From Dehalococcoidia bacterium (GTDB lineage: Bacteria; Chloroflexota; Dehalococcoidia; UBA2979), in the NCBI GenBank assembly GCA_009692705.1, contig SHYR01000001.1, positions 33,948-97,947 of the forward strand: 64,000 bases of DNA, read 5' to 3'. A program made the translations under genes and the position numbers. Of this stretch, positions 1,744 through 63,506 are shown piece after piece. Each line of letters starts with the position of its first letter. Within the stretch, counting starts at the first letter, position 1. Under the pieces are notes generated by a model. The model ran no database searches and was not told the origin of the DNA. It saw only the letters and a list, made by a program, of their open reading frames with translations.

Positions 1744-1750
1744 GGCGCGA

Positions 1751-5576: not shown

Positions 5577-5654
5577 GGTGGGTGTCGCCTAGCGGTCAAA
5601 GGCGCCAGGTTGTGGCCCTGGAGAACGAGGGTTCAAATCCCTTCACCCACCCCA
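5577..5654 (+). tRNA. tRNA-His (anticodon GTG) with encoded G-1 and 3' CCA
   Basis: Manual fold: acceptor GTGGGTG/CACCCAC preceded by G-1 at 5577; D arm GCCT-AGCGGTCAA-AGGC; anticodon arm CCAGG-TTGTGGC-CCTGG with anticodon GTG; T arm GAGGG-TTCAAAT-CCCTT; discriminator C then CCA. G-1 paired to C73 is the hallmark of bacterial tRNA-His. Confidence 0.85.
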
Positions 5655-5769
5655 ACCGCCTGATTCGCGCGACGGCCTGCGCTGCGCGCGCGGCGTAACG
5701 CATCGCGCCAGTGCTAAGATTGGTTCTTCCACTGCCGCGCCGCGTCGCCATCTGAAGGAGCTGTCGAGC

Positions 5770-6819
5770 ATGCGCTCGAAGCTGGCGCTGGCGTGTGCGG
5801 CTGCCGCGCTGCTGCTCGCCGCCTGCGGCGGCGGCGATGGCGACGACGAGGCGAGCGTGCTCGCGGACCGTATCCTGCGCATCGGCGAGAATCCAGACAC
5901 GATCGTGGAGGTGCTGCGCGGTGTGCCGCCGGGCCTCAGCGCCGCGCTCAACCCCGGCGCCACGGCGGACACGCCCGCTTCCGAACGCATGGCGCTCCCT
6001 GTGCACCCAGACGGCAAGCTGCTGGGCTCGTTCCGGGTCGTGCGGCCGGACGGCGTGCAGAACTTCTACCTGCTGTACGATATTCCGCGCGCCGACGAGC
6101 TGGTCGAGGGCGCGATCGTGAAGCAGCTGAACGAGTCGCCGTGGCAGATGAAGGTCGGCCAGTCGACGGGCTCGCAGACGGCGATCGGGTTCGAGAACAC
6201 GCGCTTCGCCGAGATCAGCGGCACGGTGTTCCTGCGCGCGGTGCGCCCGGGGCCGGACCAGCCGCTGACGAACGTGGTGTACCTGATCGAGGTGCATCCG
6301 GCGCAAGCCCCGGAGAAGCGCCCCTTCGTGCTGTCCGCGTCGCGGCCGGTGCCCGAGCGGTTTCCCGCCGGCTTCCTGGTGCAGAAGGACATGACCGCGA
6401 TCACGGTCGCATGGTCCTTCGACGCCGACGGCGATAGCTACCAGTTCGTGCTGCTGACCCGCACCACGGCCTTCGACGTGGTGGCCTTCTACCGCGCCCT
6501 GCTGCGGCAGCAGGGCTGGCAGCTCGTTGCCGACCGTGCGGTCGGATTCGCTACCGCGCTCGACTTCGCATCGCAGGACGGCGCGATCCGGGGCACGCTG
6601 ACCGCGGACGCCTTCAAGGACGACAGCGCGTACACGTCCGTGCTGCTGGAGCTGCAGCAGGCGCGAGGTGGGGCTGCCGGGCAGGGCGGTTCCCCGGCGC
6701 CGCGCACCACCCCGACGCCCGCAGGCTCGGCCATGCCAACGGCCACGCCGACGGCTACGCCGACGGCCACCCCGACGATCGCGCCCTCAGCCTCGCCGAC
6801 CCCCACCGGGGCCCGCTAG
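5770..6819 (+). CDS. lipoprotein of unknown function with C-terminal Pro/Thr-rich tail
   Basis: Signal peptide with lipobox (MRSKLALACAAAALLLAACGGG). RBS GAAGGAG lies 9 nt upstream of the ATG. The C-terminus is low complexity (TPTPAGSAMPTATPTATPTATPTIAPSASPTPTG). Confidence 0.6.
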   Translation: MRSKLALACAAAALLLAACGGGDGDDEASVLADRILRIGENPDTIVEVLRGVPPGLSAALNPGATADTPASERMALPVHPDGKLLGSFRVVRPDGVQNFYLLYDIPRADELVEGAIVKQLNESPWQMKVGQSTGSQTAIGFENTRFAEISGTVFLRAVRPGPDQPLTNVVYLIEVHPAQAPEKRPFVLSASRPVPERFPAGFLVQKDMTAITVAWSFDADGDSYQFVLLTRTTAFDVVAFYRALLRQQGWQLVADRAVGFATALDFASQDGAIRGTLTADAFKDDSAYTSVLLELQQARGGAAGQGGSPAPRTTPTPAGSAMPTATPTATPTATPTIAPSASPTPTGAR

Positions 6820-7057
6820 CCCCGCTCCGAGCGCCCCTGTGCGGATTAACCCCGAGCGGGGGATCCCTGCAGGGTGCGCGCCAGCGCTGCCGCAGGTGTT
6901 CCCCGATCAGCCGCCCGCCGGATCGCCGCGATGATCCCCGCAGATTGAGTTGCGGCGGGGACCGACCGCAACCGCTGGCCGGCACGGATGCAGGCCGGTC
7001 CGCAGGCAGGGAAGGCAAGGGAGACCGCTGGCATGGGCATGACCATCCACCAACGTC

Positions 7058-7923
7058 ATGGCGATCAATGCGCAGCGCAACTTGAACGTCACGAGCTTCA
7101 AGCTCGGGCGTGCGCTGGAGCAGCTGTCCAGCGGCATGCGCATCAACCGCGCCGCCGACGACGCAGCCGGGCTGGCGATCAGCGAGAAGATGCGCACCCT
7201 GATCCGCGGCATGCAGCAGGGATCGCGCAACGGCCAGGACGGCATCTCGATGGTGCAGATCGCCGAGGGCGCGCTGAACGAGGTCACCGGGATTCTCCAG
7301 CGCATGCGCGAACTGACGGTGCAGGCCGGCAACGACACGCTCTCGCTCAACGACCGCCGGGCGATCGGTGAGGAGCTGCTGACGCTCAAATCCGAGGTGG
7401 ACAATATCTCGGCGCGCACGACGTTCAACGGCCTCAGCCTGCTGACCGGCTCGCTCTCGACCTTGCAGGACCTGCGACGGCGCTCACGCAGAGCAGCGGC
7501 ATGGTCACGATCAACGGCGTCGCGATCAGCTGGGACGCGACCGTGGATTCCCTGAACAATGTGATCTCGCGCATCAACCAGTCCGCTACCGGCGTGACCG
7601 CGACCTACGACGAGCAGAACGACAAGTTCGTGATCACGTCGAACAAGACCGGGTCGGTGGCGGTGGGGCTGGCGGACACGGCTGGCAACCTGCTCACCTC
7701 GCTCGGTGTGCTCGCCGCGACGCAGGGCATCGGTACCGGCGCGTCGTACAAGATCAACGGCGGACCGCTGCAGTACGCGGCGACGAACGAGGTCACGAAC
7801 GCCGTGACCGGGGTGACGCTCTCGCTGAAGGAGGTTACGGCTGCCGCGATCAAGGTCACGATCAACGCCGATACCAGCACGCTGAAGGCTCGGCTGGTCG
7901 ACTTCGTGGAGGAACCAAGGTAG
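7058..7923 (+). pseudogene. flagellin-family gene remnant, frameshifted near 7465 and lacking the conserved C-terminal domain
   Basis: 7058..7555 encodes a textbook flagellin N-domain (MAINAQRNLNVTSFKLGRALEQLSSGMRINRAADDAAGLAISEKMRTLIRGMQQGSRNGQDGISMVQIAEGALNEVTGILQRMRELTVQAGNDTL). After a +1 frame switch, 7501..7923 encodes a variable-domain-like segment ending in KARLVDFVEEPR then a stop. No flagellin C-terminal helix follows, and the start lacks the usual N-terminal NTN(V)AAL residues. Confidence 0.6.
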
Positions 7924-7942
7924 ACGAACATCCCCGTGCCGA

Positions 7943-8107
7943 TCACAACAGCAGCGCAACACACCATGTGAGCACGCCCACCAGCGATACCGTCGTAAAG
8001 AAACCAGCGGTGGTCGAACCCACCATGGAGCCGATGAGAACGTCCCCGGCAACCAAAGCTCGGATCACTTCCTGCGCGGTGAACGCGAGCGCCAGGGCTG
8101 CACCCAT
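7943..8107 (-). CDS. possible small hydrophobic protein (54 aa) in a low-GC patch
   Basis: Minus-strand ORF MGAALALAFTAQEVIRALVAGDVLIGSMVGSTTAGFFTTVSLVGVLTWCVALLL* with two predicted TM helices, below the track's length cutoff. The local GC is lower than flanking DNA. No convincing RBS. Confidence 0.2.
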   Translation of the reverse strand: MGAALALAFTAQEVIRALVAGDVLIGSMVGSTTAGFFTTVSLVGVLTWCVALLL

Positions 8108-8274
8108 GGCTCACCCGACCCAAGCTGAAGCGTCGACCACCGTGCACCACGCGGCGGCTCCAACGCCCCAGAGCATCGTGTACCCCACGACCTGGGTTAT
8201 GCGGAGAATCAAGCTCCTGCGGCGGTCGTTCACTAGCGACACTCCTAGTCTCCCGCACTCTACATCGCGGCTCA

Positions 8275-8529
8275 GTGGGCACCCCTCCATTACCGTTAGT
8301 ACGGGCGCTCGAGTGGCGGCGGCGTTCCGCGCCGGCGAACAGCGCCTCGCTTTGCGCCATCGACGAGTGTGGCGAGCGCATGCGGCACCAGTGCTCGCGC
8401 TGCCGGCTGATGTTCTGCGACCAGCACCTGAGCGAGGTCAGTGTGATCGAGGGGCGCGGCGCCAGCCGGCGGCGCGTGCACGTGCTGGTGTGCGCGTACT
8501 GCCGCGCTCGCGCGCGGTACTGGAACTGA
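8275..8529 (+). CDS. hypothetical Cys-rich small protein (possible zinc-binding)
   Basis: 84-aa ORF with 7 Cys arranged as CAIDEC...CSRC...FCDQH...CAYC. The N-terminal part lies in the low-GC patch. There is no RBS, and the start (GTG at 8275 or internal ATG) is uncertain. Confidence 0.3.
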   Translation: MGTPPLPLVRALEWRRRSAPANSASLCAIDECGERMRHQCSRCRLMFCDQHLSEVSVIEGRGASRRRVHVLVCAYCRARARYWN

Positions 8530-8530
8530 G

Positions 8531-8608
8531 GCCGCGTGCGGGCGCGAGCGGGCCACGGGCGGGGCCGCGTGCGGGCGCGAGCGGGCCACGGGCGGGGCCG
8601 CGGGCGGG
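8531..8608. repeat. tandem direct repeat, 33-bp unit x about 2.3, intergenic between convergent genes
   Basis: The unit gccgcgtgcgggcgcgagcgggccacgggcggg occurs at 8531 and again at 8564, followed by a partial third copy (ggccgcgggcgggctag). Confidence 0.6.
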
Positions 8609-10255
8609 CTAGGGGCGCGCGGCGAACAGCGACTCGAACGCGCCGGGAGGGCGGTCGCGCACCGGGTTGGTGCCGGGCGCCATGTCGTTCCAGCGCGCGA
8701 GCACCCGGTTGAGGTCGGCGGCGGTCGCCATCTCCTCGCCGGCGAGCGTCTCGCCGAGCACGGCGCCGCTGGGGTCGATCACGTATGCGCCGTCCTGCGC
8801 GGACGGCGTGCCCGCCGCGATCACGTAGGCGCGGTTCTCGTTCGCGCGCGTGCGGGCGAGGGTGCGCAGCGGCGCCGCAAGCGCGCCCGCGCTCCACGCG
8901 ATCACCTCCGCGCCGCGCCACTTGAGCGAGCGCGCGAGCTCGGGCACCAGGCCCTCGGAGCCCGCCAGCAGCCCCACGTTCCCCACCGTCGTCTCCACCA
9001 CTGGCGGGGGCTCGTCGCCCGGAGAGAACCCGGCGCGCAGTTCCGCCTCGCTGAGGTGGGTCTGGCGGTGCGCGACCAGCAGCTCGCCGCCCAGCAGCAG
9101 GTACGCGGTCTTGAAGGTGCGGCCGTTGCTGCGCTCGGCGAGTTGCACGGTGAGCAGCGTGCCGCGCTCCGCGGAGAGCTCCGCGAACAGCGGCAGCGCC
9201 TCCCACTTAGTGACCGCGCGCGCGTCCAGGCCGGCGAGGTCCGGCAACACCACCAGCGCGGTGCCCTGCGCGGCGAGCGCGCGCACGATCGTGCGCGCGC
9301 GCTGCATCAGCGCCACCGCCGAATGGGCGGGCGCGAGCGCGACCGCGCCGACGCGTGCGGCGGCGTCTTCCGCCACCAGCGGCTCGCGTGCGAGCGCAGC
9401 GGCGCGCGAGCGCTGTCCAGGCGTCGCCGCCCCGGCGTAGAGGTGTGGGCGGCGCTCGACCGGCGGCCCGCCGGCGGCGTCGAGGTCGATGGTGCAGGTG
9501 AGGAGGCCGTCGCGGTCGGCCGGCGCCTGCGCCACCCAGCGCCCGGCGGGGTCGATCACGCCGGAGCGCCCGGCGTAGACGATCGAGCCGGCCTCCACGC
9601 CCACCTTGTCGGCGGCGACGACCCATGCGCCGTTCTCGATCGCGCGCGCAGGCATGATGTAGTCGATCTGCGCCGAGCTCAGCAGGGCGCGCTCGCGCGC
9701 CCACGACACCCACGCGGTGCAGTCGACGATCAGGCGCGCGCCCGCGACGGCGAAGCTGCGCGTGATCTCCGGCAGTCGCCCGTCCGCGCATACCAGCAGG
9801 CCCGCGGCGGCACCGTCGATGTCGAACACGGGGTATTCCGTGCCCGCCGTGAACCAGTCGCGGTCGAAGTGCCAGAGGAAGCTCTTGGTGTAGCGCCCGG
9901 CGACGTGACCGTCGGGGCCGAACAGCACGCAGGCGTTGTGCAGCGCGGTGCCGGTTGCGTCGCGCGGGTCCGGGCGGCGGGAGACCAGCCCGGCGGCGAT
10001 GTAGCAGCCGAAGCGGGCTGCGCGCTCGCCGAGCTCGCCTTCGACCTCGGCGTCAGGGCGCACGCCGGCGCGCTCGTAGGCCGCGCGCGAGTGCAGGAAG
10101 TAGGCGGGATAGCTGGCCTCCGGCAGCACGATCAGTCGCGGCTCGGCGGCGCCGGCCTCGTCCACCCGTTGCAGCAGCTCGCCCCACGCCGTGGCATGCT
10201 CGCCCAGGTCGAAGGCACGCAACTGCAGCAGCGCGACCTTCAGCGGCCGGCTCAC
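8609..10255 (-). CDS. carbon-nitrogen hydrolase (nitrilase superfamily) protein with two tandem CN-hydrolase domains; second domain lacks the catalytic triad
   Basis: Start taken as the GTG at 10255 (VSRPLKVALLQL...) because the upstream part of the track ORF overlaps the FAH gene. Domain 1 has the E-K-C triad (VLPEAS / RYTKSFLW / LLVCADGRLPE). Domain 2 has D/Q/G at the equivalent positions (VVLPDLAG / HRQTHL / LLAGSEGLVPE). GTG overlaps the TGA of the upstream gene (GTGA). Confidence 0.75.
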   Translation of the reverse strand: MSRPLKVALLQLRAFDLGEHATAWGELLQRVDEAGAAEPRLIVLPEASYPAYFLHSRAAYERAGVRPDAEVEGELGERAARFGCYIAAGLVSRRPDPRDATGTALHNACVLFGPDGHVAGRYTKSFLWHFDRDWFTAGTEYPVFDIDGAAAGLLVCADGRLPEITRSFAVAGARLIVDCTAWVSWARERALLSSAQIDYIMPARAIENGAWVVAADKVGVEAGSIVYAGRSGVIDPAGRWVAQAPADRDGLLTCTIDLDAAGGPPVERRPHLYAGAATPGQRSRAAALAREPLVAEDAAARVGAVALAPAHSAVALMQRARTIVRALAAQGTALVVLPDLAGLDARAVTKWEALPLFAELSAERGTLLTVQLAERSNGRTFKTAYLLLGGELLVAHRQTHLSEAELRAGFSPGDEPPPVVETTVGNVGLLAGSEGLVPELARSLKWRGAEVIAWSAGALAAPLRTLARTRANENRAYVIAAGTPSAQDGAYVIDPSGAVLGETLAGEEMATAADLNRVLARWNDMAPGTNPVRDRPPGAFESLFAARP

Positions 10256-11007
10256 GGCGCCAGCGCCACCGGGTTGCGCAGCACGCCAACGCCCACGACC
10301 TCCACCTCGACCACGTCGCCGGGGTGCAGCGCGGCGGTGGTGCCGGGCGTGCCGGTGAAGACGAGGTCGCCACGCTCCAGTGTCATGACGCTGGTGATGC
10401 GCGCGATGCACTTGCGGATCGAGTGCACCATCTGGCTCGTGTCGGCGTGCTGGATCACCACGCCGTTGACGCGGCCCTCCACGCCGATGTGCTCGGGCGT
10501 GAGCGTCGTCTCGATCCAGGGGCCGACGGCGGTGAAGGTGTCGGACGACTTCGCGCGCCACCACTGCAGGTCGTCACGCTGCCATTCGCGCGCCGAGACG
10601 TCGTTGCCGCAGGTGTAGCCGAAGACATAGCGATCGACGTCCGCTTCGGCGATGCGGCTGGCGCGGCGGCCGATCACGGCCACCACCTCGGCCTCCTCGT
10701 CCACGCGCCCGGCGTCGCGCGGCAGCAGGATCGTTTGGCCGTGGCCGATCAGGGAGGACGGTGCCTTCAGGAACGGCTCCGGTTGTGCGGGCGGCGTGCG
10801 CTCGCCGGCGTGGCTGTAGTAGTTGATGCCGATCGCCACGATCTTTGTCGGTCGCACCGGCGGCAGGAACTGGAGCTTCGAGAGCGGCACCAGCTCGCCG
10901 ATGCGCTGGAGGCGGCCGAAGGGCCCGCCGCGCACCAGCTGGGCGCTGCGTCCGGAGATGATCGCGGTGGCGGTGCGGCCGTCGAAGCGGACGCGGGCGA
11001 TGCGCAT
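10252..11007 (-). CDS. fumarylacetoacetate hydrolase (FAH) family protein
   Basis: 251 aa starting at MRIARVRFDG (ATG at 11007), with FAH-family motifs (KIVAIGINYYSHAGE...EEAEVVAVIGRRASRIAEADVDRYVFGYTCGNDVSAREWQ...GDLVFTGTPGT). The N-terminal 340 aa of the track ORF are antisense artefact over cysS. Confidence 0.85.
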   Translation of the reverse strand: MRIARVRFDGRTATAIISGRSAQLVRGGPFGRLQRIGELVPLSKLQFLPPVRPTKIVAIGINYYSHAGERTPPAQPEPFLKAPSSLIGHGQTILLPRDAGRVDEEAEVVAVIGRRASRIAEADVDRYVFGYTCGNDVSAREWQRDDLQWWRAKSSDTFTAVGPWIETTLTPEHIGVEGRVNGVVIQHADTSQMVHSIRKCIARITSVMTLERGDLVFTGTPGTTAALHPGDVVEVEVVGVGVLRNPVALAP

Positions 11008-11154: not shown

Positions 11155-12375
11155 GTGAGAGGAGCGCCGACGCTGCTCGAGGTCTACAACTCCCTCAGCG
11201 GGCGGAAGGAGGAGTTCTGGCCGCTCGAAGATCGCGTGGTGCGCATGTACGTGTGCGGGATCACGCCGTACGACGTCGGGCACCTGGGCCACGCGCGCGT
11301 CTTCGTGTTCTTCGACACCGTGCGGCGCTATTTCGAGTTCAACGCCTACCGCGTGCGGCACGTCCAGAACATCACGGACGTGGACGACGACATGGTGCGA
11401 GTCTCGCAACGGCTGGGCCTGACCATCGCCGAGCTGACCGAGCGCAACCAGCAGCTTTACCTGCAGGAGATGGACGCGCTGAACGTGCAGCGCCCCGACC
11501 TCTTCCCGAAGGCGAGCGAGCACATCGACGGCATGATCGCGCTCGTGCAGGCGCTGCTGCGCAGCGGGCACGCCTACGGCGTCGACGGCTACGTGTTCTT
11601 CGACACCGCCACCACCCCGCGCTTCGGCGCGCTCGCCGGGCACGACCGCGAGGGGCTGCGCCACGTGCGCAACGACTCGATGCCGCAGGAGCCGGAGGAG
11701 CTGAAGCGCGACGCGCTCGACTTCTTGCTCTGGCAGCCCTCCGAGCAGGCGGGCGCGGCTTTCGACTCGCCGTGGGGGCGCGGGCGTCCCGGCTGGCACA
11801 TCGAGTGCTCCGCGATGGTGCATGCGGCGCTGGGCGACCGCATCGATATCCACGGCGGGGGCAGCGACCTGCGCTATCCACACCATGACTCGGAGATCGT
11901 GCAGTCGGAGTGCGCCACCGGCGCCGCGCCGTACGTTTCGCTCTGGATGCACATCGGCACGGAGTTGCTCGAGGGCGTGAAGATGTCGAAGTCTCTCGGC
12001 AACCTGGTGAAGGTGAGCGAGCTGCTGGTGCGGGGGCACACACCGGACGGCATCCGGCTGTACCTGCTGGGCACGCCGTACCGCGAGCAGCAGGACTTCT
12101 CCCCCGCCGCGCTGTCGCAGTGGGAGCAGCGCGCTGCCACGCTGGCACGCGCGGCGGCGGCAGCAGGCGGGCCGCCGGACCGGCTGCGCGTGCAGCCGCT
12201 GCGCAACGAGTTCACGGCGGCGATGGACGATGGCTTCGACACGCCGCGCGCGATCGCTGCGCTGCTGCGGATCGCGGACGGCGTGGAGCGGCAGCGGCTG
12301 GCGGGCGAGACGGCGGTGCCCGCGCTGCTGGAGCTGGCGGGCGTGCTGGGACTGCGGCTGGGCCGGGAGGGCTAG
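11155..12375 (+). CDS. cysS: cysteine--tRNA ligase (class I, short form without the C-terminal extension)
   Basis: HIGH-type block MYVCGITPYDVGHLGHARVFVFFDTVRRYF; WGRGRPGWHIECSAM; DIHGGGSDLRYPHHDSEIVQSE; KMSKSLGNLV. The N-terminus LLEVYNSLSGRKEEFWP aligns with the CysRS start MLKIFNTLTRQKEEF rather than with MshC. Start is either the GTG at 11155 or a CTG at 11173 that sits 8 nt after an AGGAG. The upstream 400 codons of the track ORF are artefact. Confidence 0.8.
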   Translation: MRGAPTLLEVYNSLSGRKEEFWPLEDRVVRMYVCGITPYDVGHLGHARVFVFFDTVRRYFEFNAYRVRHVQNITDVDDDMVRVSQRLGLTIAELTERNQQLYLQEMDALNVQRPDLFPKASEHIDGMIALVQALLRSGHAYGVDGYVFFDTATTPRFGALAGHDREGLRHVRNDSMPQEPEELKRDALDFLLWQPSEQAGAAFDSPWGRGRPGWHIECSAMVHAALGDRIDIHGGGSDLRYPHHDSEIVQSECATGAAPYVSLWMHIGTELLEGVKMSKSLGNLVKVSELLVRGHTPDGIRLYLLGTPYREQQDFSPAALSQWEQRAATLARAAAAAGGPPDRLRVQPLRNEFTAAMDDGFDTPRAIAALLRIADGVERQRLAGETAVPALLELAGVLGLRLGREG

Positions 12376-12408
12376 CGCGTGACGGCGCTTGCCGGGAAGT
12401 AGCTGGCA

Positions 12409-13710
12409 TTGTTATCGATCGGCGGCGGGCTGCTCGCCGTCCTGGCGCTGGTGCTTGTGAACGGCTTCTTCGTCGCTGCCGAGTACGCGATCGTGACCGT
12501 GCGCCGCACGCGCGTGGCGCAGCTCGTGGCCGAAGGCGCGCTCGCGGGGCGCACGCTCGAGCACGCGGTGGGGCGCCTCGACTCCTACATCGCGACCTGC
12601 CAGCTCGGCGTGACGATCGCCAGCCTGGCGCTGGGGTGGATCGGCGAGCCGGCGCTGGCCGGGCTGCTGGATCCGGTGTTCGGGCGCGCCTCGCACCCGG
12701 CGGCGGTGGCGCTGGCGTTCATCGCGATCACCACGGTGACCGTGGTCGCCGGCGAACTCGCGCCGAAGAATATCGCGCTGCGGTACGCCGAGCGCGTGGC
12801 GCTGATCGTGGTGTTGCCGCTGCGTGTATTCCGCGCGCTGTTTCGCCCAGTGATCTGGCTGCTCACGGAGGCAGGGTGGGCGGTCGCCGGCGTCTTCGGC
12901 GTGCGGCGCGACGCCTTGGAGGCGTCGTCCGCGAGCGCGGCGGAGCTGCGGCTGATCGTAGAGCACAGCGCCGCCGCCGGACAACTGGGCGACGACGAGC
13001 GCCTGCTACTCGGCCGCGTGCTGCGCTTCGGTGAGCTGCGCGTGGGCGATGTGATGGTGCCGCGCACGGAGGTACTGGCGATCGCGCTCGACACCGCGGT
13101 GGTGGAGGCCGTGCGCTTCGTCGCCGAGCATCATCACTCTCGCTACCCGGTATACCGCGAGAGCGTGGACGATGTGATCGGGGTGCTGCACGCGCGCGAC
13201 CTGTTGCGGCCGGCGTTGCCTGGCACGCTCGAAGCGCTGCTGCGACAGCCGCTGATGGTGCCGGCGCAGGCGAGCGTCGCCGAGCTGCTGGAGCAGATGC
13301 GCGAACACCGCACGCACTTCGCGATCGCCGTCGACGAATACGGCGGTACGGACGGCATCGTGACGCTGGAGGACGTGCTCGAGCAGATCGTCGGCGAGTT
13401 GCGCGACGAGTTCGAGCCTGTGCTGCCCGCCGCCGAGACACGGCCGGGGGTGCTGCGCATCGACGGCCTCGACGCGGTGGAAGTGCTCGCCGAGCGGTTG
13501 AGCGTGACGGTGGAGCCCGGCCCGTACAACACGGTCGCCGGCTACGTGCTGGAGCGCATCGGCCGCATCCCGCACGTGGGCGACGCCGTGGAGCTGGACG
13601 GCTACTCGCTCACGGTAGTGGAGATGGACGATCTGCGCGTCGCGGCGGTGGAGGCGAGCCCGGCGCCACGACGCCGGATCGCGCCGGGCGCTAGGGCCGG
13701 ATCGCGCTGA
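12409..13710 (+). CDS. CNNM/CorC-family transporter (DUF21 membrane domain + CBS pair + CorC_HlyC)
   Basis: 433 aa beginning at TTG. It has an N-terminal 4-TM DUF21 domain (GELAPKNIALRYAERVALI), CBS pair (VGDVMVPRTEV...IGVLHARDLL) and C-terminal transporter-associated domain (GYSLTVVEMDDLRV). Confidence 0.85.
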   Translation: MLSIGGGLLAVLALVLVNGFFVAAEYAIVTVRRTRVAQLVAEGALAGRTLEHAVGRLDSYIATCQLGVTIASLALGWIGEPALAGLLDPVFGRASHPAAVALAFIAITTVTVVAGELAPKNIALRYAERVALIVVLPLRVFRALFRPVIWLLTEAGWAVAGVFGVRRDALEASSASAAELRLIVEHSAAAGQLGDDERLLLGRVLRFGELRVGDVMVPRTEVLAIALDTAVVEAVRFVAEHHHSRYPVYRESVDDVIGVLHARDLLRPALPGTLEALLRQPLMVPAQASVAELLEQMREHRTHFAIAVDEYGGTDGIVTLEDVLEQIVGELRDEFEPVLPAAETRPGVLRIDGLDAVEVLAERLSVTVEPGPYNTVAGYVLERIGRIPHVGDAVELDGYSLTVVEMDDLRVAAVEASPAPRRRIAPGARAGSR

Positions 13711-55769: not shown

Positions 55770-56663
55770 GTGACGGTTCCCTCGGGCGCGCGCTACCAGG
55801 TCGGCACGGTCCACTTCACCGTGCTGAACGACGGCGTCTTCTACTCCGACGCCGGCGCGGTCTTCGGCATCATCCCGCGCGTGCTGTGGGAGCGCGTCTC
55901 GGGGCCGCTCGACGAGCGCTACCGCATCCCGCTGGCGCTGAACTGCCTGCTGCTGCGCTCCGAGGGGAAGACGATCCTGATCGAGACCGGCATCGGGGGG
56001 AAGCCGGGAGACCGCGACGCCGCCTCGCCCGCCGCGGACGGCACGCTGATGGACGCCCTGGCCGCGGCCGGCGTGCGGCCGGAGGAGGTCGATGTCGTGA
56101 TCAACTCGCACCTCCACTCCGACCACTGCGGCTGGAACACGGTGGTGGACGAGCGCGCGCCGCAGGACGCGCCGCTCGAGCGGCGCGTGAAGCTCGGCTT
56201 CCCCAACGCCACCTACTACGTCGGCGCGGCCGAGTGGCGTGACGCCACGCACCCCAACGAGCGCACGCGCGGCACCTACTTCGAGCGCAACCTCACCCCG
56301 GTCGCGGACCACCTCATGCTGGTGGACGGCGAGCTGGACATCACCGGCGAGGTGAAGTTCGTGCCGGCGCCCGGGCACACGGAGGGGCACGGCACGGTGC
56401 TGATCCACTCCGGCCGCGAGTCCGCGATCTACGTCGGCGACCTCGCGCAGCATCGCGTCCAGCTCGAGCGCACGGTCTGGGTGTCGAGCTTCGACCTGTT
56501 GCCGCTGCTGTCGATGGAGACCAAGAAGCAGCTCGTCGATCGCGCGATCGAGCAGCGGTCGCTGCTGATCATGACCCACTCGCCGTACCCCGGCGTGCTG
56601 CGGCCCACCCGCAACGAGCGCGGCTTCCGCGAGCTGCTCGACGTCTCGCCGCTCGAGGCGTAG
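55770..56663 (+). CDS. MBL-fold metallo-hydrolase
   Basis: HxHxDH motif (VVINSHLHSDHCGWN) and downstream H/D ligands (APGHTEGH...GDLAQH). GTG start with GGAGG 9 nt upstream. Confidence 0.8.
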   Translation: MTVPSGARYQVGTVHFTVLNDGVFYSDAGAVFGIIPRVLWERVSGPLDERYRIPLALNCLLLRSEGKTILIETGIGGKPGDRDAASPAADGTLMDALAAAGVRPEEVDVVINSHLHSDHCGWNTVVDERAPQDAPLERRVKLGFPNATYYVGAAEWRDATHPNERTRGTYFERNLTPVADHLMLVDGELDITGEVKFVPAPGHTEGHGTVLIHSGRESAIYVGDLAQHRVQLERTVWVSSFDLLPLLSMETKKQLVDRAIEQRSLLIMTHSPYPGVLRPTRNERGFRELLDVSPLEA

Positions 56664-56670: not shown

Positions 56671-57792
56671 GTGACCGCGCCCGGCGGCGCCGCAGGCGAG
56701 CCGCGCGAGCCTCGGCGGCGCGAGGGCGCGCAGCTCCGCGTGCTGCCGCTCGCCGGCCTGCACCTCCAGCTCGGCTGCCGTCCCACGCCCGCGCACGGCT
56801 GGTCGATGCCGCTGTGGTACGAGGGTGCGCTCGACGAGCAGGAGCAGACGCGGCGCGCCGCCGGCGTCTTCGACCGCTCGCACCTCGGCCGCTTCTACGT
56901 CACCGGCGAGCGCGCGGGCGCCGTGCTGGGTCGCGTGCTGGCGAGCGATCCCGCGCGCATGGCGGTCGGCGCCGTGCAACGCGCGGTGGCCTGCCAGGAC
57001 GGCGGCACGATCCTCGACCTCGTCACGCTGGGCCGGCTCGACGATCAGCGCTGGCTCGTGGTCACCGGTCCGCGCCACGGTGACCGGCTGCTGGCTGCTG
57101 TCGCTGCCGAGGCGGCCGGCGCGGCGGTCGAGGTGCACGACCGCCGCATGGCGACCGCGCTGGTGTCGTTGCAGGGCCCGGCGGCGGCGGAGATCTTTGG
57201 CAAGGTGTTCGGCGCGAGCCTGCGCGACGGCATCGCGCGGGAGCGCTGCCGCGAGCTGCTGCTGGGGCTGCATCGCGCCGCGATCCTGCGCACCTCGGCG
57301 ATGGGCGAGGACGGCTTCTGGCTGCTGATCCGCCCCGACGACGGCGCCGAGCTCTGGCGGGCGTTCGTGGCGGCGGGCGCGGTCTCCGCGGGGCTGCAGG
57401 CGCACGACGCCCTGCGGCTGGAGGCTGCGGTGCTGGAGGCGCCCGCCGAGACTCCGCCGCCCGTGACGCCGCAGGCGGCTGGCCTCGGCTCGCTGGTGGA
57501 GCTCGACGGCCGGGCGTTCCGCGGTGCGGAGGCGCTGCGCGCCGCGGGGCCGCCTCCGCGCCTGCTCACCGGCCTGTGGCTGGAGGGGCCGCGGCTCGCT
57601 CGTGCCGGCGCCCGCATCAGCATCGAAGGCGCCGATGTCGGGGCGTGCGTCGCGGGCGGCTACTCGCCGGCGCTCGGCGCCGCGATCGCGCTCGCGTACC
57701 TGCCGCCGGGCGCGCAGCGCGTGGAGGTGGACGCGGGCGGGCAGCACGCCGCGGCCACGGTGGTGCCGCTACCGTTCGTCGCGCTGCGCTAG
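56671..57792 (+). CDS. gcvT: aminomethyltransferase (glycine cleavage system T protein)
   Basis: GcvT-family N-terminus (MPLWYEGALDEQEQTRRAAGVFDRSHLGRFYVTGERA...LVSLQGPAAAEIF). Length 373 aa, typical for GcvT. Confidence 0.7.
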   Translation: MTAPGGAAGEPREPRRREGAQLRVLPLAGLHLQLGCRPTPAHGWSMPLWYEGALDEQEQTRRAAGVFDRSHLGRFYVTGERAGAVLGRVLASDPARMAVGAVQRAVACQDGGTILDLVTLGRLDDQRWLVVTGPRHGDRLLAAVAAEAAGAAVEVHDRRMATALVSLQGPAAAEIFGKVFGASLRDGIARERCRELLLGLHRAAILRTSAMGEDGFWLLIRPDDGAELWRAFVAAGAVSAGLQAHDALRLEAAVLEAPAETPPPVTPQAAGLGSLVELDGRAFRGAEALRAAGPPPRLLTGLWLEGPRLARAGARISIEGADVGACVAGGYSPALGAAIALAYLPPGAQRVEVDAGGQHAAATVVPLPFVALR

Positions 57793-57813: not shown

Positions 57814-58491
57814 CTAGTACCAGGCCTCGATCGGCGTGCCCCACTGGAAGGGCCGCGTCAGCACCCAGCCGAGCCCGCGCTCGGCGGCGTGGTGCTTGAG
57901 CCACGCGCGCACCGGCTCGGTCAGCGGCCCGTCGTACCCCACGTCGTAGGAGAACCGCGGGCCACTGAGGTTGAAGTCGAGGTAGTAGATGCGCCCGCGC
58001 AGCGCGCCGGCGCCGTCGAGGTCGCGCGCGGCGGCCTCCGCGCCGGCGGCGACTTGCTGCAGCAGCAGCTCGAGCGTGCGCGCCGGCCACAGTCGCCGGG
58101 GCGCGATCGCCGCCTCGATCGTGGGCACGCGCACCAGCAACCGCTCGCCGTCGGCGGTGTGCTCCAGCGTGGCGGGGCCGAGTTGCTCCAGCGCCCACGC
58201 CAGCGCGCAGGTCGCCGAGAGCACGTCCTGCGCGCGCTGGTCTCGTTCGCCGCCGCCACCGCAGCCGTCCGCGCCGTGCGCGGCCACCAGGCGCTCGCGC
58301 AGCTCGCCGAGCTGCCCGGCGCGCTCGACGTCATCGAGCGCGCGCGCGAGCCAGTAGTACGGCGGGTGATGCTCGGCGTTGCGCGTCTTGGTGCGCGCAA
58401 CCCAGCAGCTGCGCTCGCCGCCGTACGACTCGACGCGCGGCAGCAGGCGCTGCAGCCAGTCGCCGATCTCGAGCCGCCGGTGCGTCGTCAC
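57814..58491 (-). CDS. hypothetical protein
   Basis: 225-aa ORF with protein-like composition (RIYYLDFNLSGPRFSYDVGYDGPLTEPVRAWLKHH). It has the opposite orientation to its neighbours. No family recognised. Confidence 0.45.
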   Translation of the reverse strand: MTTHRRLEIGDWLQRLLPRVESYGGERSCWVARTKTRNAEHHPPYYWLARALDDVERAGQLGELRERLVAAHGADGCGGGGERDQRAQDVLSATCALAWALEQLGPATLEHTADGERLLVRVPTIEAAIAPRRLWPARTLELLLQQVAAGAEAAARDLDGAGALRGRIYYLDFNLSGPRFSYDVGYDGPLTEPVRAWLKHHAAERGLGWVLTRPFQWGTPIEAWY

Positions 58492-59435: not shown

Positions 59436-59505
59436 CGCGCCCCGCGGCGAACCGACAGCCGCGGTCCCGGGCACCACGCGTCGCAGGCCGCCGAGGGAGA
59501 TCGCC

Positions 59506-60300
59506 GTGGTCACGCCGCGCCCCGAGATGCCCGCCGGGGCGGTGGACCTCTCCGGCCGCAAGGCGATGGTGGTGGGCGTCGAGACGCCCGCGGGCGCGGC
59601 GATCGCGCTGGCGTACGCGCGGGCGGGCGCCGACGTCGCGCTCTGTGCGCTGCGCGCCGACGAGGGCGTGGTGACCGCCAAGCGCATCCAGAAGCAAATC
59701 CAGGCGCTTGGACGCGGCAGCAGCGTGTACGTGATGGACGTGCTGCTGGGCAGGAACGTGCAGGTCACCACGCGGCAGGTGACGAAGGAGCTGGGCGGGC
59801 TCGACATCGTGGCCGGCTGTTCGCATCGCCTGCTCGCCAGGCCGCTCGCGCAGACCACCGACGTGGAGCTGCAGCAGGTGCTGGCGCTCAACTTCAACGC
59901 CCAGTTCTTCCTCGCGCGCTCTGCGGCGGGAGAGTTGGTGCGGCAGGGCCGAGGCGGCAGCATCCTGCTGGTGACGCGCGCCCTCGACGAGCGCGGGATC
60001 GCCGGCGGCGCCGCCGCGTACAGCGCCGCGCACGCGGCGGTACACGCGCTCGTGCGAGCGCTGGCGCAGGAGCTCGCGCCGCAGCAGGTCGCGATCAACG
60101 CCCTCGCGCTGGACTGGGAGGCCGCGCCGGCCGGCGGGCACGACGAGCAGGCCGCGCATGCCGTAGGCTCCGCGCCCGCGGAGCGCCCCGGCGCTGCGGA
60201 CGCGGTCGGACCGCTCGCGGTCCGGCTGTCCCGTGGCGGCGCCGGAGCCGTCAGCGGGCAGGTGGTCGCCGCGGACGGGGACACGCTGCCGCGCGGATAG
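59506..60300 (+). CDS. SDR-fold protein with non-canonical motifs (Y-x3-H in place of Y-x3-K; degenerate glycine-rich loop)
   Basis: GTG 59506 with a GAGGGAG RBS 6 nt upstream. VVGVETPAGAAIA replaces TGxxxGIG. The active-site block is AAYSAAHAAVHALVRALAQE. An SDR Rossmann core is present. Confidence 0.55.
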   Translation: MVTPRPEMPAGAVDLSGRKAMVVGVETPAGAAIALAYARAGADVALCALRADEGVVTAKRIQKQIQALGRGSSVYVMDVLLGRNVQVTTRQVTKELGGLDIVAGCSHRLLARPLAQTTDVELQQVLALNFNAQFFLARSAAGELVRQGRGGSILLVTRALDERGIAGGAAAYSAAHAAVHALVRALAQELAPQQVAINALALDWEAAPAGGHDEQAAHAVGSAPAERPGAADAVGPLAVRLSRGGAGAVSGQVVAADGDTLPRG

Positions 60301-60347
60301 CGATCGGTAGCCGCCGCCCTGGCCCGTGACAGAGGCGACAGGAGGCG

Positions 60348-61145
60348 ATGGTGATCCTCGATCGGTTCGACCTCAGCGGCCGGAGCGCCATCGTCACCGG
60401 TGCGGGCAGCGGCCTCGGTCGCGCGATGGCGATCGCGCTGGCGCAGGCGGGGGCCGACATCGTCGGCGTCGGTCGCCGGCGCGAGGTGCTCGAGGAGAGC
60501 CGGGGGATGGTGGAGGCGCTGGGACGCCGCTTCCTCGTCCACCCCACCGACGTCACCGACTCGGCGCAGGTCAACGCCATGGTCGCGCACGCGATCGCGG
60601 AGATGGGCCGCATCGACATCCTGATCAACAACGCCGGCGGCGGCGGTTCCGGGGCGGGCAAGTCGCTGCCGGAGCTGACGGACGAGGACTGGCACAGCGG
60701 GATCGACAGCAACCTCACGTCCGCCTTCTACTGCACGCGCGCGATCGTGCCGCACATGCTGGAGCGGGGAGGCGGCCGCATCATCAACGTCGCCTCCTCG
60801 GTCGGGTTTCGCGCCATGAGCGGCGCCTGGATGTACCCGATCGCGAAGGCCGGCATCGTCTCGCTCACGCGGGCGATCGGGTTCAACTATGCGCGCGACG
60901 GCATCCGCTGCAGCTGCATCGCGCCCGGCCGCTTCCCCTTTCGCGCCACGGCGGAGACGAAGCGCGCGATCGGCGAGCGGCAGGTGGCCGGGCGCATCGG
61001 CGAGCCGGATGAGATCGCCGCCGCCGCCGTGTTCCTCAGCTCGCCCGCGGCGGACTACCTCTCCGGTGAAACCTTGATCATCGACGGCGGCGTGGTGGCG
61101 GCCGGCATCATCCCGTTCTCGATGCGGCCCGTGGTGGAGGGCTGA
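60348..61145 (+). CDS. SDR-family oxidoreductase (canonical motifs)
   Basis: TGAGSGLGRA, NNAG, S...YPIAKAG (Y-x3-K) and PG...P are all present. Confidence 0.85.
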   Translation: MVILDRFDLSGRSAIVTGAGSGLGRAMAIALAQAGADIVGVGRRREVLEESRGMVEALGRRFLVHPTDVTDSAQVNAMVAHAIAEMGRIDILINNAGGGGSGAGKSLPELTDEDWHSGIDSNLTSAFYCTRAIVPHMLERGGGRIINVASSVGFRAMSGAWMYPIAKAGIVSLTRAIGFNYARDGIRCSCIAPGRFPFRATAETKRAIGERQVAGRIGEPDEIAAAAVFLSSPAADYLSGETLIIDGGVVAAGIIPFSMRPVVEG

Positions 61146-61149
61146 CGCG

Positions 61150-61941
61150 ATGGCGGCCGGCGCCCGGCGCGTGCCGTTCTTCGACCTCACCGGCCGGCAC
61201 GCGCTGGTCACCGGCGCCACCGGCCCGCTCGCGCGGGCGCTCGCGGTGGCGCTCGCCGAGGCGGGCGCCGACGTCTCCGTGACCACGCTGCAGCACGACC
61301 GCGCCGAGGAGGTGCAGGCGAACTCGATCCTCAACGAGTGCTGGGCCATCGGGCGGCGCGGCGAGGCGCGCACGGTCGATCTCACGGACCCGCGCGCGGT
61401 GGCGGCGGCCGTCGATGCGCTCGAGCGCTCGATCGCGCCGATCGACATCCTCGTGAACGCCGGCCATCACGCGAACATCAAGCCCGCGCTCGACGCCACG
61501 GTGGCGGAGTGGAATCGCGAGATCGCGCGCAACGCCACGGCGGTCTTTGTCGCCTCGCAGGCGGTGGCGCGGGGCATGATCCAGCGCCGCTACGGTCGCA
61601 TCGTCAACATCGTCTCGATCCTGTACGACCGCGGAGCGTCGAACGCGGCGCTCTACGCCGCCTCGCAGGGCGCCGTGCTCGGCTTCACGCGCTCAGCGGG
61701 GATCGAGTGGGGACACGCCGGCGTCACCGTCAACGCGCTGGGGATCGGCATCTTCGACGGCGTGCCGGGGCCGCAGAGCGACCCCGAGCTGCACGCCTTC
61801 TTCGAGCGCTACCTGCCGATGCGCCGGCCGGGGAAGCCGGAGGACCTGCAGGGCGCGCTGGTGTACCTAGCCTCCGCGGAGGCCGGCTTCGTGCTGTCCG
61901 AGCTGCTGGTGGTCGACGGCGCGCTCCAGCCGCACATGTGA
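61150..61941 (+). CDS. SDR-fold protein with Y-x3-Q in place of Y-x3-K and altered cofactor loop
   Basis: VTGATGPLARALA; NAGHHAN; the active-site block is SNAALYAASQGAVLGF. It starts 5 nt after the preceding SDR. Confidence 0.65.
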   Translation: MAAGARRVPFFDLTGRHALVTGATGPLARALAVALAEAGADVSVTTLQHDRAEEVQANSILNECWAIGRRGEARTVDLTDPRAVAAAVDALERSIAPIDILVNAGHHANIKPALDATVAEWNREIARNATAVFVASQAVARGMIQRRYGRIVNIVSILYDRGASNAALYAASQGAVLGFTRSAGIEWGHAGVTVNALGIGIFDGVPGPQSDPELHAFFERYLPMRRPGKPEDLQGALVYLASAEAGFVLSELLVVDGALQPHM

Positions 61942-62066
61942 GGCGGTGGTCTGCCAGACGCGAGGATGAGCCTTGCACAATAAGCACAAGAAGTGAAGTA
62001 GCGTCTACACAAGTCGGCGGTCTGCACAAAACAGTCTGGTGCTGTTCGGCGTTGCCGCGAGCCTAC

Positions 62067-62318
62067 TCAAGGCGCGTCAGGTCGGTCGGTCGTAGTGTGG
62101 GCACGGTCGCCCAACGGGATCACGAAGTAACCGATGATCAGGCCTATGATCTCGCCAAGCAGCAAGCCGAACAACATGAGGAGCATCCACCAGTAGGACG
62201 CGCCGCGATCGCGGATCATCCTCCACAGGAAGTAGTACGGTACCGTCAGCACCGCGAGCACCATCGGGAGGATCAGCAGTTCTTGCCAGCCGAGACTCCC
62301 TGGCATCGAAACGTTCAT
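62067..62318 (-). CDS. small membrane protein (83 aa) in a low-GC islet
   Basis: MNVSMPGSLGWQELLILPMVLAVLTVPYYFLWRMIRDRGASYWWMLLMLFGLLLGEIIGLIIGYFVIPLGD has two clear TM helices. The surrounding 600 bp have reduced GC. Confidence 0.35.
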   Translation of the reverse strand: MNVSMPGSLGWQELLILPMVLAVLTVPYYFLWRMIRDRGASYWWMLLMLFGLLLGEIIGLIIGYFVIPLGDRAHTTTDRPDAP

Positions 62319-62543: not shown

Positions 62544-63506
62544 CTAGCCCGTCCAGGGCAGGGAGCGCGGCTGCAACACCTGCCGCACGCGCCCGTCCGC
62601 GACCAGCGCGATCAGATCGAGCGCGCCGTACAGCGCCGGGCTCATCCCCCGCAGCGCCGCCGTCGCCAGCTCGTCGTCGATGTGCGCCAGCGCCCCGACC
62701 AGCAGCAGCGCCGCGAGCTCGCAGCTCCCCGCCGCGCGCTGCTCCGCCGCGCGCCGCACGTGGCGTCGCAGCAGCCGCCGCACCGCGGCGCCGTCCCCCG
62801 GCTCGAAGTCGGGCGGCGCGCCGATCACCGTCAGGCCCGCCGGCTCCTCCGCGGGCAGCCGCGACAGCAGCCATGCGTCGTGCACCGCCACGCTCGTGCG
62901 CTGCTCGCGGTTGAGCAGCGCCGCGCGGTCGCGCACGCGCGCGAGCACGATCTCGACCTCGGCCTCCTCCTCGGACAGCCGCCGCAGCGCCCGCGCGTCG
63001 AGGTGGTAGGCGCCCTTCACGCCCTCGGAGAGGTGCGTCCAGCGCGCGGCGAGGGGGCCGCTCACAGACATGTACGCGCCCTCGTCGTCGACCTTCGCCA
63101 GCTCCAGCTGCACCGGCACGCGCAGCTCGCGGCGCTGCCCCGGCGCGAGCCCGCGCAGCGCGCCGGCGACCAGCAGGCGGAACTGCGAGCGCTGCGGCTC
63201 GCTCACCGGCAGCGAGCCGCCGGGCGGCACCCATAGCACGTAGGCGCCGGGATCGAGGTCGGCGGCGAGCATCTGCTCGAACGACCCCCCACCCGGCACG
63301 GGATCGCCATCGGCGTCCTCCCACAGCGCCCCCACGGTCACGCCCACGCGCCGCTCGCGCTGCATCAGCACGGCGTCGAAGGGTGTCGCGTCGCCCTCGC
63401 CGGCGCGGAAGCTGCGGAAGAAGCGCTCGCCCATCCAGGCGGTCAGCATCGCGAGCGCGGCTCGGCTGCTGCGGGAAAGCGGCTGTTGCGGGCGTGGCGC
63501 CGTCAC
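62544..63506 (-). CDS. hypothetical protein
   Basis: 320 aa. A GTG start at 63506 lies 13 nt after the stop of the upstream membrane-protein gene. Soluble, acidic, with protein-like composition. Confidence 0.5.
   Translation of the reverse strand: MTAPRPQQPLSRSSRAALAMLTAWMGERFFRSFRAGEGDATPFDAVLMQRERRVGVTVGALWEDADGDPVPGGGSFEQMLAADLDPGAYVLWVPPGGSLPVSEPQRSQFRLLVAGALRGLAPGQRRELRVPVQLELAKVDDEGAYMSVSGPLAARWTHLSEGVKGAYHLDARALRRLSEEEAEVEIVLARVRDRAALLNREQRTSVAVHDAWLLSRLPAEEPAGLTVIGAPPDFEPGDGAAVRRLLRRHVRRAAEQRAAGSCELAALLLVGALAHIDDELATAALRGMSPALYGALDLIALVADGRVRQVLQPRSLPWTG

Follow-up and report, generated by a model that had tools for sequence, protein, structure and literature searches.

Why does a bacterial genome keep three tandem genes of the SDR fold when only the middle one carries a canonical catalytic motif? 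We addressed this question in a Dehalococcoidia bacterium, within a stretch of 64,000 nucleotides that was analysed as a whole (contig SHYR01000001.1, forward-strand positions 33,948 to 97,947; hereafter the window), where three ORFs on the same strand, termed g1, g2 and g3, occupy exactly the coordinates given in a preliminary description (Table 1). That description had taken them for three SDR-fold paralogs with g2 as the sole canonical member, and this was borne out. The Pfam families adh_short_C2 and adh_short match all three proteins far above their cut-offs (E = 1e-27 with adh_short_C2 for g1, 8e-55 for g2 and 4e-38 for g3), so their membership of the SDR fold is not a matter of chance, and alignments to E. 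coli FabG and solved SDRs, from which all motif states were read, place TGxxxGxG, NNAG and the N-S-Y-K tetrad in g2 only. Heteromeric SDRs in which some subunits are inactive are considered rare, and g2–g3 is probably of this known type; the characterised cases that we found are BbsCD, plant benzaldehyde synthase and HSD17B8–CBR4, the last with a full tetrad in both subunits.

Table 1 Features of the three-gene SDR locus, in window coordinates
Feature	Position	Strand	Length	Description
g1 Shine–Dalgarno-like site	59493–59499			GAGGGAG
g1	59506–60300	+	264 aa	B1-type pseudo-SDR
g1/g2 spacer	60301–60347	+	47 nt	Contains AGGAGG, the Shine–Dalgarno-like site of g2, at 60340–60345
g2	60348–61145	+	265 aa	A2-type canonical classical SDR; presumed catalytic subunit
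g2/g3 junction	61136–61149	+		GGAGGG (61136–61141), the Shine–Dalgarno-like site of g3, in the final g2 codons; TGA stop (61143–61145); 4-nt spacer; g3 ATG
g3	61150–61941	+	263 aa	B2-type pseudo-SDR; presumed non-catalytic partner of g2

Each gene is preceded by a Shine–Dalgarno-like site, that of g3 lying within the 3′ end of g2. Of the two gaps first described, 47 nt between g1 and g2 and 5 nt between g2 and g3, the former stands and the latter is in fact 4 nt (61146–61149). The layout of the g2/g3 junction is typical of translational coupling, and orthologous g2–g3 pairs show either the identical 4-nt gap or a 4-nt overlap. Promoter-like or terminator-like sites were looked for in the g1/g2 spacer and none was found; scans of the 58–64 kb interval likewise returned no promoter-like site, credible intergenic terminator or Rfam RNA family. 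Assigning a function through NCBIfam or solved structures was rejected, all matches being generic and all scores below cut-offs: none of the named SDR equivalogs (FabG, KduD, gluconate 5-dehydrogenase, BadH and others) reaches its curated cut-off for g1, g2 or g3 (for example, best scores of 196.9 against a cut-off of 312 for g2 and 158 against 279 for g3), and the nearest solved relatives of g2 are generic SDRs, BbsD among them (E = 3e-40).

The motif states of the three proteins agree with those first reported and extend them. In g2, the textbook TGAGSGLG, NNAG and YxxxK (Y-PIA-K) motifs are accompanied by the Asn and Ser of a full tetrad and by the PG motif, and all these columns are 100% canonical in 30 g2 orthologs; the stretch after strand β2 is basic (GRRRE), which, from established SDR knowledge, we take to be of the NADP(H) type. 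The altered loop of g3 (TGATGPLA) has Pro as its second Gly, Leu stands where Arg follows strand β2, the Asp is kept, NNAG is replaced by N-AG-H, and the tetrad columns hold Asn, Ser, Tyr and, for Lys, Gln (Gln173, in Y-AAS-Q). In g1, which is 100% identical to one NCBI Dehalococcoidia MAG protein, the degenerate loop reads VVGVETPAG (G-V-E-T-P-A-G), AGCS occupies the NNAG position, and the tetrad columns hold Asn, Arg, Tyr and His (Y-SAA-H), so that the catalytic Ser is missing in addition to the Lys whose absence had been noted. A nearby Lys or Arg that might rescue the tetrad was sought up to four positions away from the Lys column, in the window proteins and in their families, and none was present.

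The losses of catalytic residues in g1 and g3 are family traits. The Lys is missing from nearly all of about 175 g1 relatives, the column holding His, Gln or Cys with K/R at most 3%, and the Tyr column is variable. In the g3 family K/R is at 0% and Gln fills the Lys column in all 120 close homolog clusters, while the Tyr of the window protein is a minority state: Phe takes its place in 96 of the 120 close relatives (80%) and in 73% of a wider set (n = 148).

Two further SDR types, both canonical, occur in relatives: g0, which lies upstream of g1 and is absent from the window, and gM, which is encoded on the minus strand past orf320m. Every motif column is 92–100% canonical in the A types (g0, g2 and gM), and the B types (g1 and g3) have common derived changes, namely Pro for the second loop Gly, Leu for the Arg after β2, Leu for the Pro of the PG motif, and loss of NNAG. 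A neighbour-joining tree on corrected distances (300 bootstraps) gave the topology ((g0,g2),(g1,g3)), with 99% support each for g0 + g2 and g1 + g3, and none of the 300 bootstraps grouped the sequences by gene pair; this topology implies that a pair of one active and one inactive gene was duplicated. In deep-branching B members the Gly loop is already degenerate and YxxxK is still present. Long-branch attraction between the fast-evolving g1 and g3 families is possible; slow-evolving B members join them too.

The three genes had also been expected to recur as a unit, which the comparative survey did not bear out. Across 54 g1-seeded loci with enough flanking sequence, the locus ranges from one to five genes, its fullest form being g0-g1-crotonase-g2-g3, and the layout of the window recurs in only about 9 of the 54. 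What does recur is the downstream pair: 25 of these loci have both g2 and full-length g3, and neither occurs without the other (25/25), a joint inheritance of one full-motif and one deficient SDR. All g1-seeded loci fall within a block in which gene order is conserved in general (uppP, orf225m and orf320m), and adjacency there, taken by itself, counts for little. Look-ups seeded with g3 returned g2-like/g3-like pairs with the identical 4-nt gap and with g1, uppP and orf320m absent within 7 kb, and similar A–B pairs stand free in a Proteobacteria MAG (locus L071) and in deep-branching Chloroflexota loci. In 17 related loci g1 and g2 are separated by a crotonase gene (NF006128, above cut-off), and a gene of the CoA-transferase family follows the g2–g3 pair in loci L081–L084; both are absent from the window, in which a search for a g0 or crotonase copy elsewhere found none.

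Partner losses provide further evidence. In three lineages of the g1 tree g2 has been lost, and in each of them g3 is shortened and degenerate, the ratio of C-half to N-half identity of g3 being 1.06 with g2 and 0.54 without it. The same ratio for g1 is 0.96 where g0 is present and 0.44–0.52 where it is not, with the window g1 intermediate at 0.70; after loss of g0 only the C-terminal half of g1 relaxes. The distance matrices of g1, g2 and g3 correlate (r = 0.72–0.85), and do so beyond the background (partial correlation 0.53–0.72 after controlling for flanking genes, the background being two flanking genes only, in 17 genomes); none of 2,000 mirror-tree permutations reached the observed value.

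We lean, at slightly better than even confidence, towards reading the locus as what is left of two duplicated A/B pairs, in which g2–g3 would be a heteromeric reductase similar to BbsCD and benzaldehyde synthase and g1 an orphaned inactive subunit. Each ancestral pair would have comprised a catalytic A gene followed by a non-catalytic B gene. The intact pair, g2 (A2) and g3 (B2), would most likely form a hetero-oligomer, by analogy an α2β2 tetramer, in which g2 binds NADP(H) and carries out the oxidoreduction and g3 contributes surfaces for assembly and, perhaps, a portion of the substrate pocket. As the B subunit of the other pair, g1 would have lost its catalytic partner g0, together with the crotonase, in this lineage, and may now serve as an accessory subunit of g2/g3 or have a separate non-catalytic role. 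Subunit pairing of g2 and g3 is well supported at the level of sequence comparison by their constant co-occurrence, tight spacing and varied contexts, the decay of g3 without g2, and the tree of duplicated pairs. The proposal in the preliminary description that a catalytic SDR is combined with inactive paralogs as subunits thus finds comparative support for g2 and g3; an ancestral design of one catalytic and two scaffold subunits does not, the ancestral partner of g1 being g0. We infer the physical association of g2 with g3, its stoichiometry and its cofactor preference from sequence and by analogy; a weak hint of an acyl-CoA substrate comes from the crotonase and CoA-transferase genes beside the pairs in relatives, neighbours that the window lacks.

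The closest parallel is BbsCD, in which the catalytic BbsD and the pseudoenzyme BbsC are likewise adjacent SDR paralogs and form an α2β2 tetramer, the assembly proposed here for g2 and g3 by analogy. BbsCD acts on a CoA thioester beside an enoyl-CoA hydratase step (BbsH), to which the crotonase between the SDR pairs of relatives offers a parallel, and BbsD, one of the better solved-structure matches of g2, also matches g3. The gene order differs, however, the inactive bbsC preceding bbsD and the active g2 preceding g3, and bbs or bss genes are absent near the locus. Orthology with BbsC or BbsD was rejected: BbsD (7pcs_B) is the sixth solved-structure match of g2 and the fortieth of g3, amid dozens of unrelated SDRs at comparable scores, and BbsC is absent from the top 60 matches of g1 and of g3.

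In the human HSD17B8–CBR4 enzyme, both subunits carry the full catalytic tetrad and bind cofactor. It resembles the complex proposed here in being a heterotetramer of two classical SDR paralogs, and it acts on a thioester-linked 3-oxoacyl substrate, but two of the three proteins here, g1 and g3, lack the tetrad and the cofactor-binding features. In ketoreductase domains of polyketide and fatty-acid synthases, a structural pseudo-KR subdomain, a degenerate Rossmann or SDR-like half, supports the catalytic SDR half, and some matches to the g1 profile combine, in one chain, a degenerate N-terminal SDR domain with a canonical C-terminal one. Pseudo-KRs are, however, fused megasynthase domains, and the double-SDR proteins found by a search for Rosetta-stone fusions among the exhaustive HMM matches are tandem SDRs of a generic kind with no specific relationship to g1 or g3; because they score like generic SDRs, they provide no Rosetta-stone evidence for g1 or g3.

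HSD17B8–CBR4 has been described as a heterotetrameric 3-ketoacyl-ACP reductase (Venkatesan et al., Nat Commun 2014, cited in PMC13418739), and BbsCD and petunia benzaldehyde synthase as α2β2 SDRs with inactive subunits (PMC13418739). The β subunit of the petunia enzyme retains Asn, Ser and Tyr, with the Lys and the cofactor-binding Arg replaced, and among its orthologs Lys has become Leu, Ala or Ser while the adenine Asp is kept; this inactive subunit is needed for assembly and helps to bind the CoA substrate (PMC13418739). In the petunia β subunit, the substitution L166K disrupted assembly. The state of g3 (N-S-Y/F-Q, Leu for the Arg after β2, Asp kept) resembles that of the β subunit. Benzaldehyde synthase differs in being a plant peroxisomal enzyme that evolved independently and whose genes do not form an operon, and in the Arg-rich C-terminal tail of its β subunit: the tail of g3 is short and conserved, ends in His-Ala or His-Met and has no Arg cluster.

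A different reading, which we consider unlikely, makes g1 and possibly g3 a non-enzymatic regulator, sensor or adaptor of the SDR fold that acts through a conserved surface and is not a subunit with g2. In the reductive series g1 is the last gene retained, persisting in about 23 loci with no adjacent catalytic SDR, either alone or with a degenerate g3 only, from which it follows that B-type proteins need not be subunits. It is conserved chiefly in the N-terminal half, which stays constrained after the loss of g0. This Rossmann half bears a near-invariant polar motif, LG(R/K/Q)NVQVTTRQ(V/I)xKE(L/M)GGLD, and the loop G-x-E-x-P-x-G; the family hallmark, MDVLLGRNVQVTTRQVTKELGGLD, spans g1 residues 77–100, and no element is better conserved than the helix-αD motif LG(R/K/Q)NVQVTTRQ (z = 1.17). 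Conservation of the usual interface helices is average or lower, and a standard tetramer for g1 is unsupported by interface conservation, the canonical αE/αF and αG/β7 elements not being specifically conserved. Against this reading, where g0 is present the two halves of g1 are equally constrained, which points to a partner-dependent function; the correlation of g1 with g2 and g3 in evolution exceeds the background; g1 and the SDR gene that follows it share 4 nt in several loci; and neither a binding partner nor a ligand emerged as a candidate. The AlphaFold2 model of g1 (pLDDT 86) has a generic SDR fold that compares with solved SDR structures at a TM of about 0.8, and a fold search with it returned generic classical SDRs only, with no BbsC-like or other special match.

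It is similarly doubtful that g1-type proteins form a distinct stand-alone class of pseudo-SDRs whose N-terminal half has a partner-independent, non-catalytic function as a ligand sensor or adaptor; such a class would explain why g1 outlives every adjacent catalytic SDR in the reductive series and why its usual place is directly after uppP. A functional link between g1 and uppP was itself set aside, the whole block (uppP, orf225m, orf320m, a metallo-β-lactamase-fold gene and an aminomethyltransferase (GcvT)-like gene) being syntenic in these genomes.

Decidedly improbable, in our judgement, is that the locus encodes three separately acting SDR enzymes, with g1 and g3 as catalysts that use His or Gln in place of Lys, perhaps for non-redox chemistry. 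The window g3 does keep Asn, Ser and Tyr; Gln, Ser, His106 and Arg161 are strictly invariant in its family and could alternatively mark a non-canonical active site, and His106 and Arg161 lie around the pocket together with Trp187, which is invariant too. Purifying selection is clear in both pseudo-families, and new functions have been reported for some SDRs without tetrad residues (PMC13418739). Set against this are the replacement of Tyr by Phe in most close g3 relatives, the variable Tyr of g1, and the alteration of the Gly loop, NNAG, post-β2 Arg and PG motif in both families; the decay of g3 upon every loss of g2, moreover, is unexpected for an autonomous enzyme.

That g1 and g3 are functionless, decaying relics of tandem duplication, held open by chance in a genome of 75% G+C, where long spurious ORFs are many, is very improbable: g1 does show a relaxed C-terminal half in g0-less lineages and, partly, in the window, and shortened forms of g3 occur in other lineages, but here both genes are intact with Shine–Dalgarno sites, each has more than 100 homolog clusters at 45–74% identity with family-specific invariant residues, full-length g3 is conserved as well as g2 or better (63–67% versus 52–53% identity in out-of-context pairs), and both give confident AlphaFold2 models of the SDR fold (pLDDT 88 for g3).

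Taken as duplicated and reduced A/B pairs, the locus and its relatives suggest, from sequence comparison, that active/inactive SDR pairs make up a sizeable bacterial group, as yet uncharacterised, in Dehalococcoidia and in Chloroflexota that are likely of SAR202 type; within this group are a duplicated pair and a natural series in which partners were lost. The practical value of this is for now modest. Non-catalytic proteins are probably among the SDR paralogs that have been counted to infer oxidative capacity in these lineages (for example, PMC5395668). Through the natural series of losses, evolution itself tests which regions of a pseudoenzyme are retained on its partner's account: when the partner is lost, the C-terminal half of the inactive subunit relaxes and the N-terminal half stays constrained.

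The preliminary description placed three tandem genes at 59506-61941, and ORF analysis found three same-strand ORFs that fill this span exactly; of its two intergenic spacings, the 47 nt between g1 and g2 stood, while the 5 nt between g2 and g3 measured 4 nt. Each of these genes, in a window of ~75% G+C, is preceded by a Shine-Dalgarno-like site, that of g3 (GGAGGG) lying within the final codons of g2. For g1 and for g3 alike, a Dehalococcoidia metagenome-assembled genome (MAG) contains an annotated protein with 100% identity. All three products match Pfam adh_short and adh_short_C2 (E = 1e-23 to 8e-55), and since all of them score far short of the curated cut-off of every NCBIfam model, naming stops at 'SDR'. 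AlphaFold2 modelled g1 and g3 with confidence (pLDDT 86 and 88, respectively), and by fold comparison the g1 model resembles ordinary SDR structures.

Coordinates of features in the window and in related loci (each locus in its own numbering)
Source	Feature	Position	Strand	Length
Window	metallo-beta-lactamase-fold gene	55770-56663	+	
Window	aminomethyltransferase (GcvT)-like gene	56671-57792	+	
Window	orf225m	57814-58491	-	225 aa
Window	g1	59506-60300	+	264 aa
Window	g2	60348-61145	+	265 aa
Window	g3 Shine-Dalgarno-like site	61136-61141		
Window	g3	61150-61941	+	263 aa
Window	convergent intergenic region	61942-62066		
Window	membrane ORF	62067-62318	-	83 aa
Window	orf320m	62544-63506	-	320 aa
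L001	crotonase gene	6819-7739		
L002	crotonase gene	5971-6885		
L013	crotonase gene	7107-8003		
L014	gM	11787-12560	-	
L039	gM	9473-10696	-	
L071	SDR pair and transposase genes	1681-6756		
L081-L084	g2-g3 pair and neighbours	6202-10531		

Motif columns, read from an alignment to E. coli FabG and solved SDRs, bear out that only the middle gene has the canonical Tyr-x3-Lys. g2 carries TGAGSGLG, NNAG, Asn, Ser, Y-PIA-K and PG, together with GRRRE after strand beta2; a basic stretch at this point is typical of NADP(H)-dependent classical SDRs, and GRRRE is probably such a signature. In g1 the Gly loop is V-G-V-E-T-P-A-G, NNAG is replaced by AGCS, the Ser column holds Arg and the Tyr motif is Y-SAA-H; g3 reads T-G-A-T-G-P-L-A, N-AG-H, Ser and Y-AAS-Q. 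Neither protein, nor its family, has a Lys or Arg within 4 residues of the Lys column, so rescue by a shifted basic residue, raised as a counter-argument in the preliminary description, fails.

The motif losses are family traits, not local damage. Among ~175 g1 relatives, 44% have His at the Lys column, 25% Gln and 8% Cys, and K/R reaches <=3%; at the Ser column they have His, Ser or Arg, S-A-P-D stands where NNAG is expected, and the Gly loop is G-x-E-x-P-x-G. In the 120 homolog clusters closest to g3, the Lys column is Gln throughout and the Tyr column Phe in 96, with Asn and Ser retained. Four derived changes are common to both families (the loop's second Gly to Pro, the Arg after strand beta2 to Leu, loss of the Lys, and the PG-motif Pro to Leu), and at each of these columns the canonical SDR groups of the same loci, g2, g0 (upstream of g1 in relatives) and gM (minus strand, beyond orf320m), are 92-100% conserved. 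The g1 family is narrow: an exhaustive profile search of 1.84 billion representatives yielded 175 at E <= 1e-30, ~20 of them above 200 bits, and most top-scoring matches are without TGxxxGxG. Double-SDR fusion proteins among these matches were rejected as Rosetta-stone support, being generic.

With the g1 family as seed, a genome scan recovered 71 Chloroflexota loci, in which tblastn and ORF analysis revealed the conserved block orf225m(-) / uppP / [g0] / g1 / [crotonase] / [g2 g3] / ... / orf320m(-) / gM(-). In the 54 g1-seeded loci with sufficient flanking sequence, four of which had their mis-binning corrected, g2 and a full-length g3 occur jointly in 25 and never one without the other; g1 is accompanied by only a shortened, degenerate g3 in ~22 and stands alone in 3. 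The layout of the window, uppP-g1-g2-g3, is found in only ~9 of the 54: the g2-g3 pair is conserved, and the triplet is not, an outcome that the preliminary description had named as telling against its proposal. Because the whole block keeps its gene order in these genomes, adjacency in g1-seeded loci is weak evidence by itself. Look-ups seeded on g3 returned a g2-like gene (52-53% identity), the 4-nt gap of the window and a g3-like gene (63-67%), with no g1, uppP or orf320m within 7 kb. In these g3-seeded loci (L081-L084) the pair is followed by a flavin oxidoreductase of the luciferase-like type and by a gene of the acetyl-CoA hydrolase/transferase (CoA-transferase) family, surroundings that give the impression of a SAR202-type catabolic context. 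An FMO-like, possibly Baeyer-Villiger-type, monooxygenase also lies near the pair in L083 and L084.

The g1 tree, annotated with locus content, shows three lineages that lost g2, every one of them with a g3 that is shortened and degenerate. The ratio of C-half to N-half identity, our measure of partner dependence, is 1.06 for g3 with g2 present and 0.54 with it absent, and 0.96 versus 0.44-0.52 for g1 with and without g0; g1 of the window is intermediate (0.70). Loss of the catalytic partner relaxes the C-half, which holds the active-site region and usual SDR oligomer interfaces, in both inactive families, with the N-half remaining under constraint. The distance matrices for the three genes g1, g2 and g3 correlate more strongly with one another (r = 0.72-0.85) than with those of the flanking uppP and orf320m (r = 0.47-0.69); the partial correlations, at 0.53-0.72, hold up against 2000 permutations, which with only 17 genomes and two background genes is soft evidence.

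On the best-supported reading, g2 and g3 would together make up a heteromeric SDR in which g2 carries out catalysis and g3, though conserved, serves as a subunit without catalytic function. Of the earlier proposal that an active SDR is joined by compromised paralogs in a hetero-oligomer, the g2/g3 part would hold, its weight resting on co-occurrence, decay patterns, out-of-context pairs and phylogeny; the triplet as a unit falls away. The closest precedents for g2/g3 are BbsCD and petunia benzaldehyde synthase, alpha2-beta2 SDRs with an inactive subunit. The petunia beta subunit keeps Asn, Ser, Tyr and the adenine Asp, has Lys and the cofactor Arg replaced, and is needed for assembly and CoA-substrate binding (PMC13418739); g3 has the same residue pattern. 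SDR enzymes with pseudoenzyme subunits are a known class, and we file the locus there as a putative new member, itself uncharacterised; what it would add is the duplication of a pair and an inactive subunit that has been orphaned. The idea of an acyl-CoA substrate comes solely from the crotonase and CoA-transferase genes that relatives have nearby.

In a distance-based neighbour-joining tree (300 bootstraps), g0 groups with g2 and g1 with g3 (99% each), all four group together (88%), and grouping by gene pair (g0+g1 or g2+g3) is recovered in 0/300. Duplication, as one unit, of an ancestral pair of active and inactive genes would be expected to give this topology, ((g0,g2),(g1,g3)). One locus, L062, holds both pairs, the first with a 4-nt overlap and the second with a 4-nt gap. 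Deep-branching inactive-type members (L035, L067, L071 and one L062 gene) keep YxxxK beside an already degenerate Gly loop, so the cofactor site seems to have been lost before the catalytic residues. L071, from a Proteobacteria MAG, holds a lone active/inactive pair adjoining transposase genes (assigned to the IS21 family by reading two translated ORFs), its second gene combining the loop G-A-E-H-P-V-G with YCAAK; this suggests that the pair may have spread horizontally as a unit.

g1 would then be what is left of the other pair, its inactive subunit, the catalytic partner having been lost in the lineage of the window: g0, a canonical fourth SDR that immediately precedes g1 in 25 loci, does not occur in the window. 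g1 might now join g2/g3, might act through its polar and very conserved helix-alphaD motif LG(R/K/Q)NVQVTTRQ, or might be slowly degenerating. The fully canonical gM, ~0.5 kb beyond the orf320m homolog in 41 loci, would in the window fall past position 64000. In lineages without g0 and g2 it is the sole catalytic SDR near g1, which makes it a possible alternative partner. In one clade (L039, L051-L053, L057, L059, L061 and L077) g1 overlaps by 4 nt a ~208-aa degenerate g3 remnant whose catalytic columns have lost Ser, Tyr and Lys alike; the two are a translationally coupled non-catalytic SDR-fold pair with no adjacent same-strand catalytic SDR.

In 17 loci (three in the table and 14 further) g1 is followed closely by the crotonase/enoyl-CoA hydratase gene (NF006128, score above cut-off), which lies between g1 and g2 wherever g2 is present and is absent from the window; this gene shows 76-88% identity among 13 of the 17, against 50-65% for its neighbours. 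The metallo-beta-lactamase-fold and GcvT-like genes upstream of the SDRs belong to the same conserved syntenic block, with no evident link to them. The convergent intergenic region 3' of g3 has ~65% G+C against 75% for the genome, with no Rfam family or terminator-like hairpin detected in it, and the membrane ORF has no tblastn match in related loci at E <= 1e-5. orf225m and orf320m, which flank the SDR cluster, match no Pfam family; nearly all related Dehalococcoidia loci have both in the same positions, at 42-65% identity, which gives them the look of genuine core genes that are still uncharacterised.
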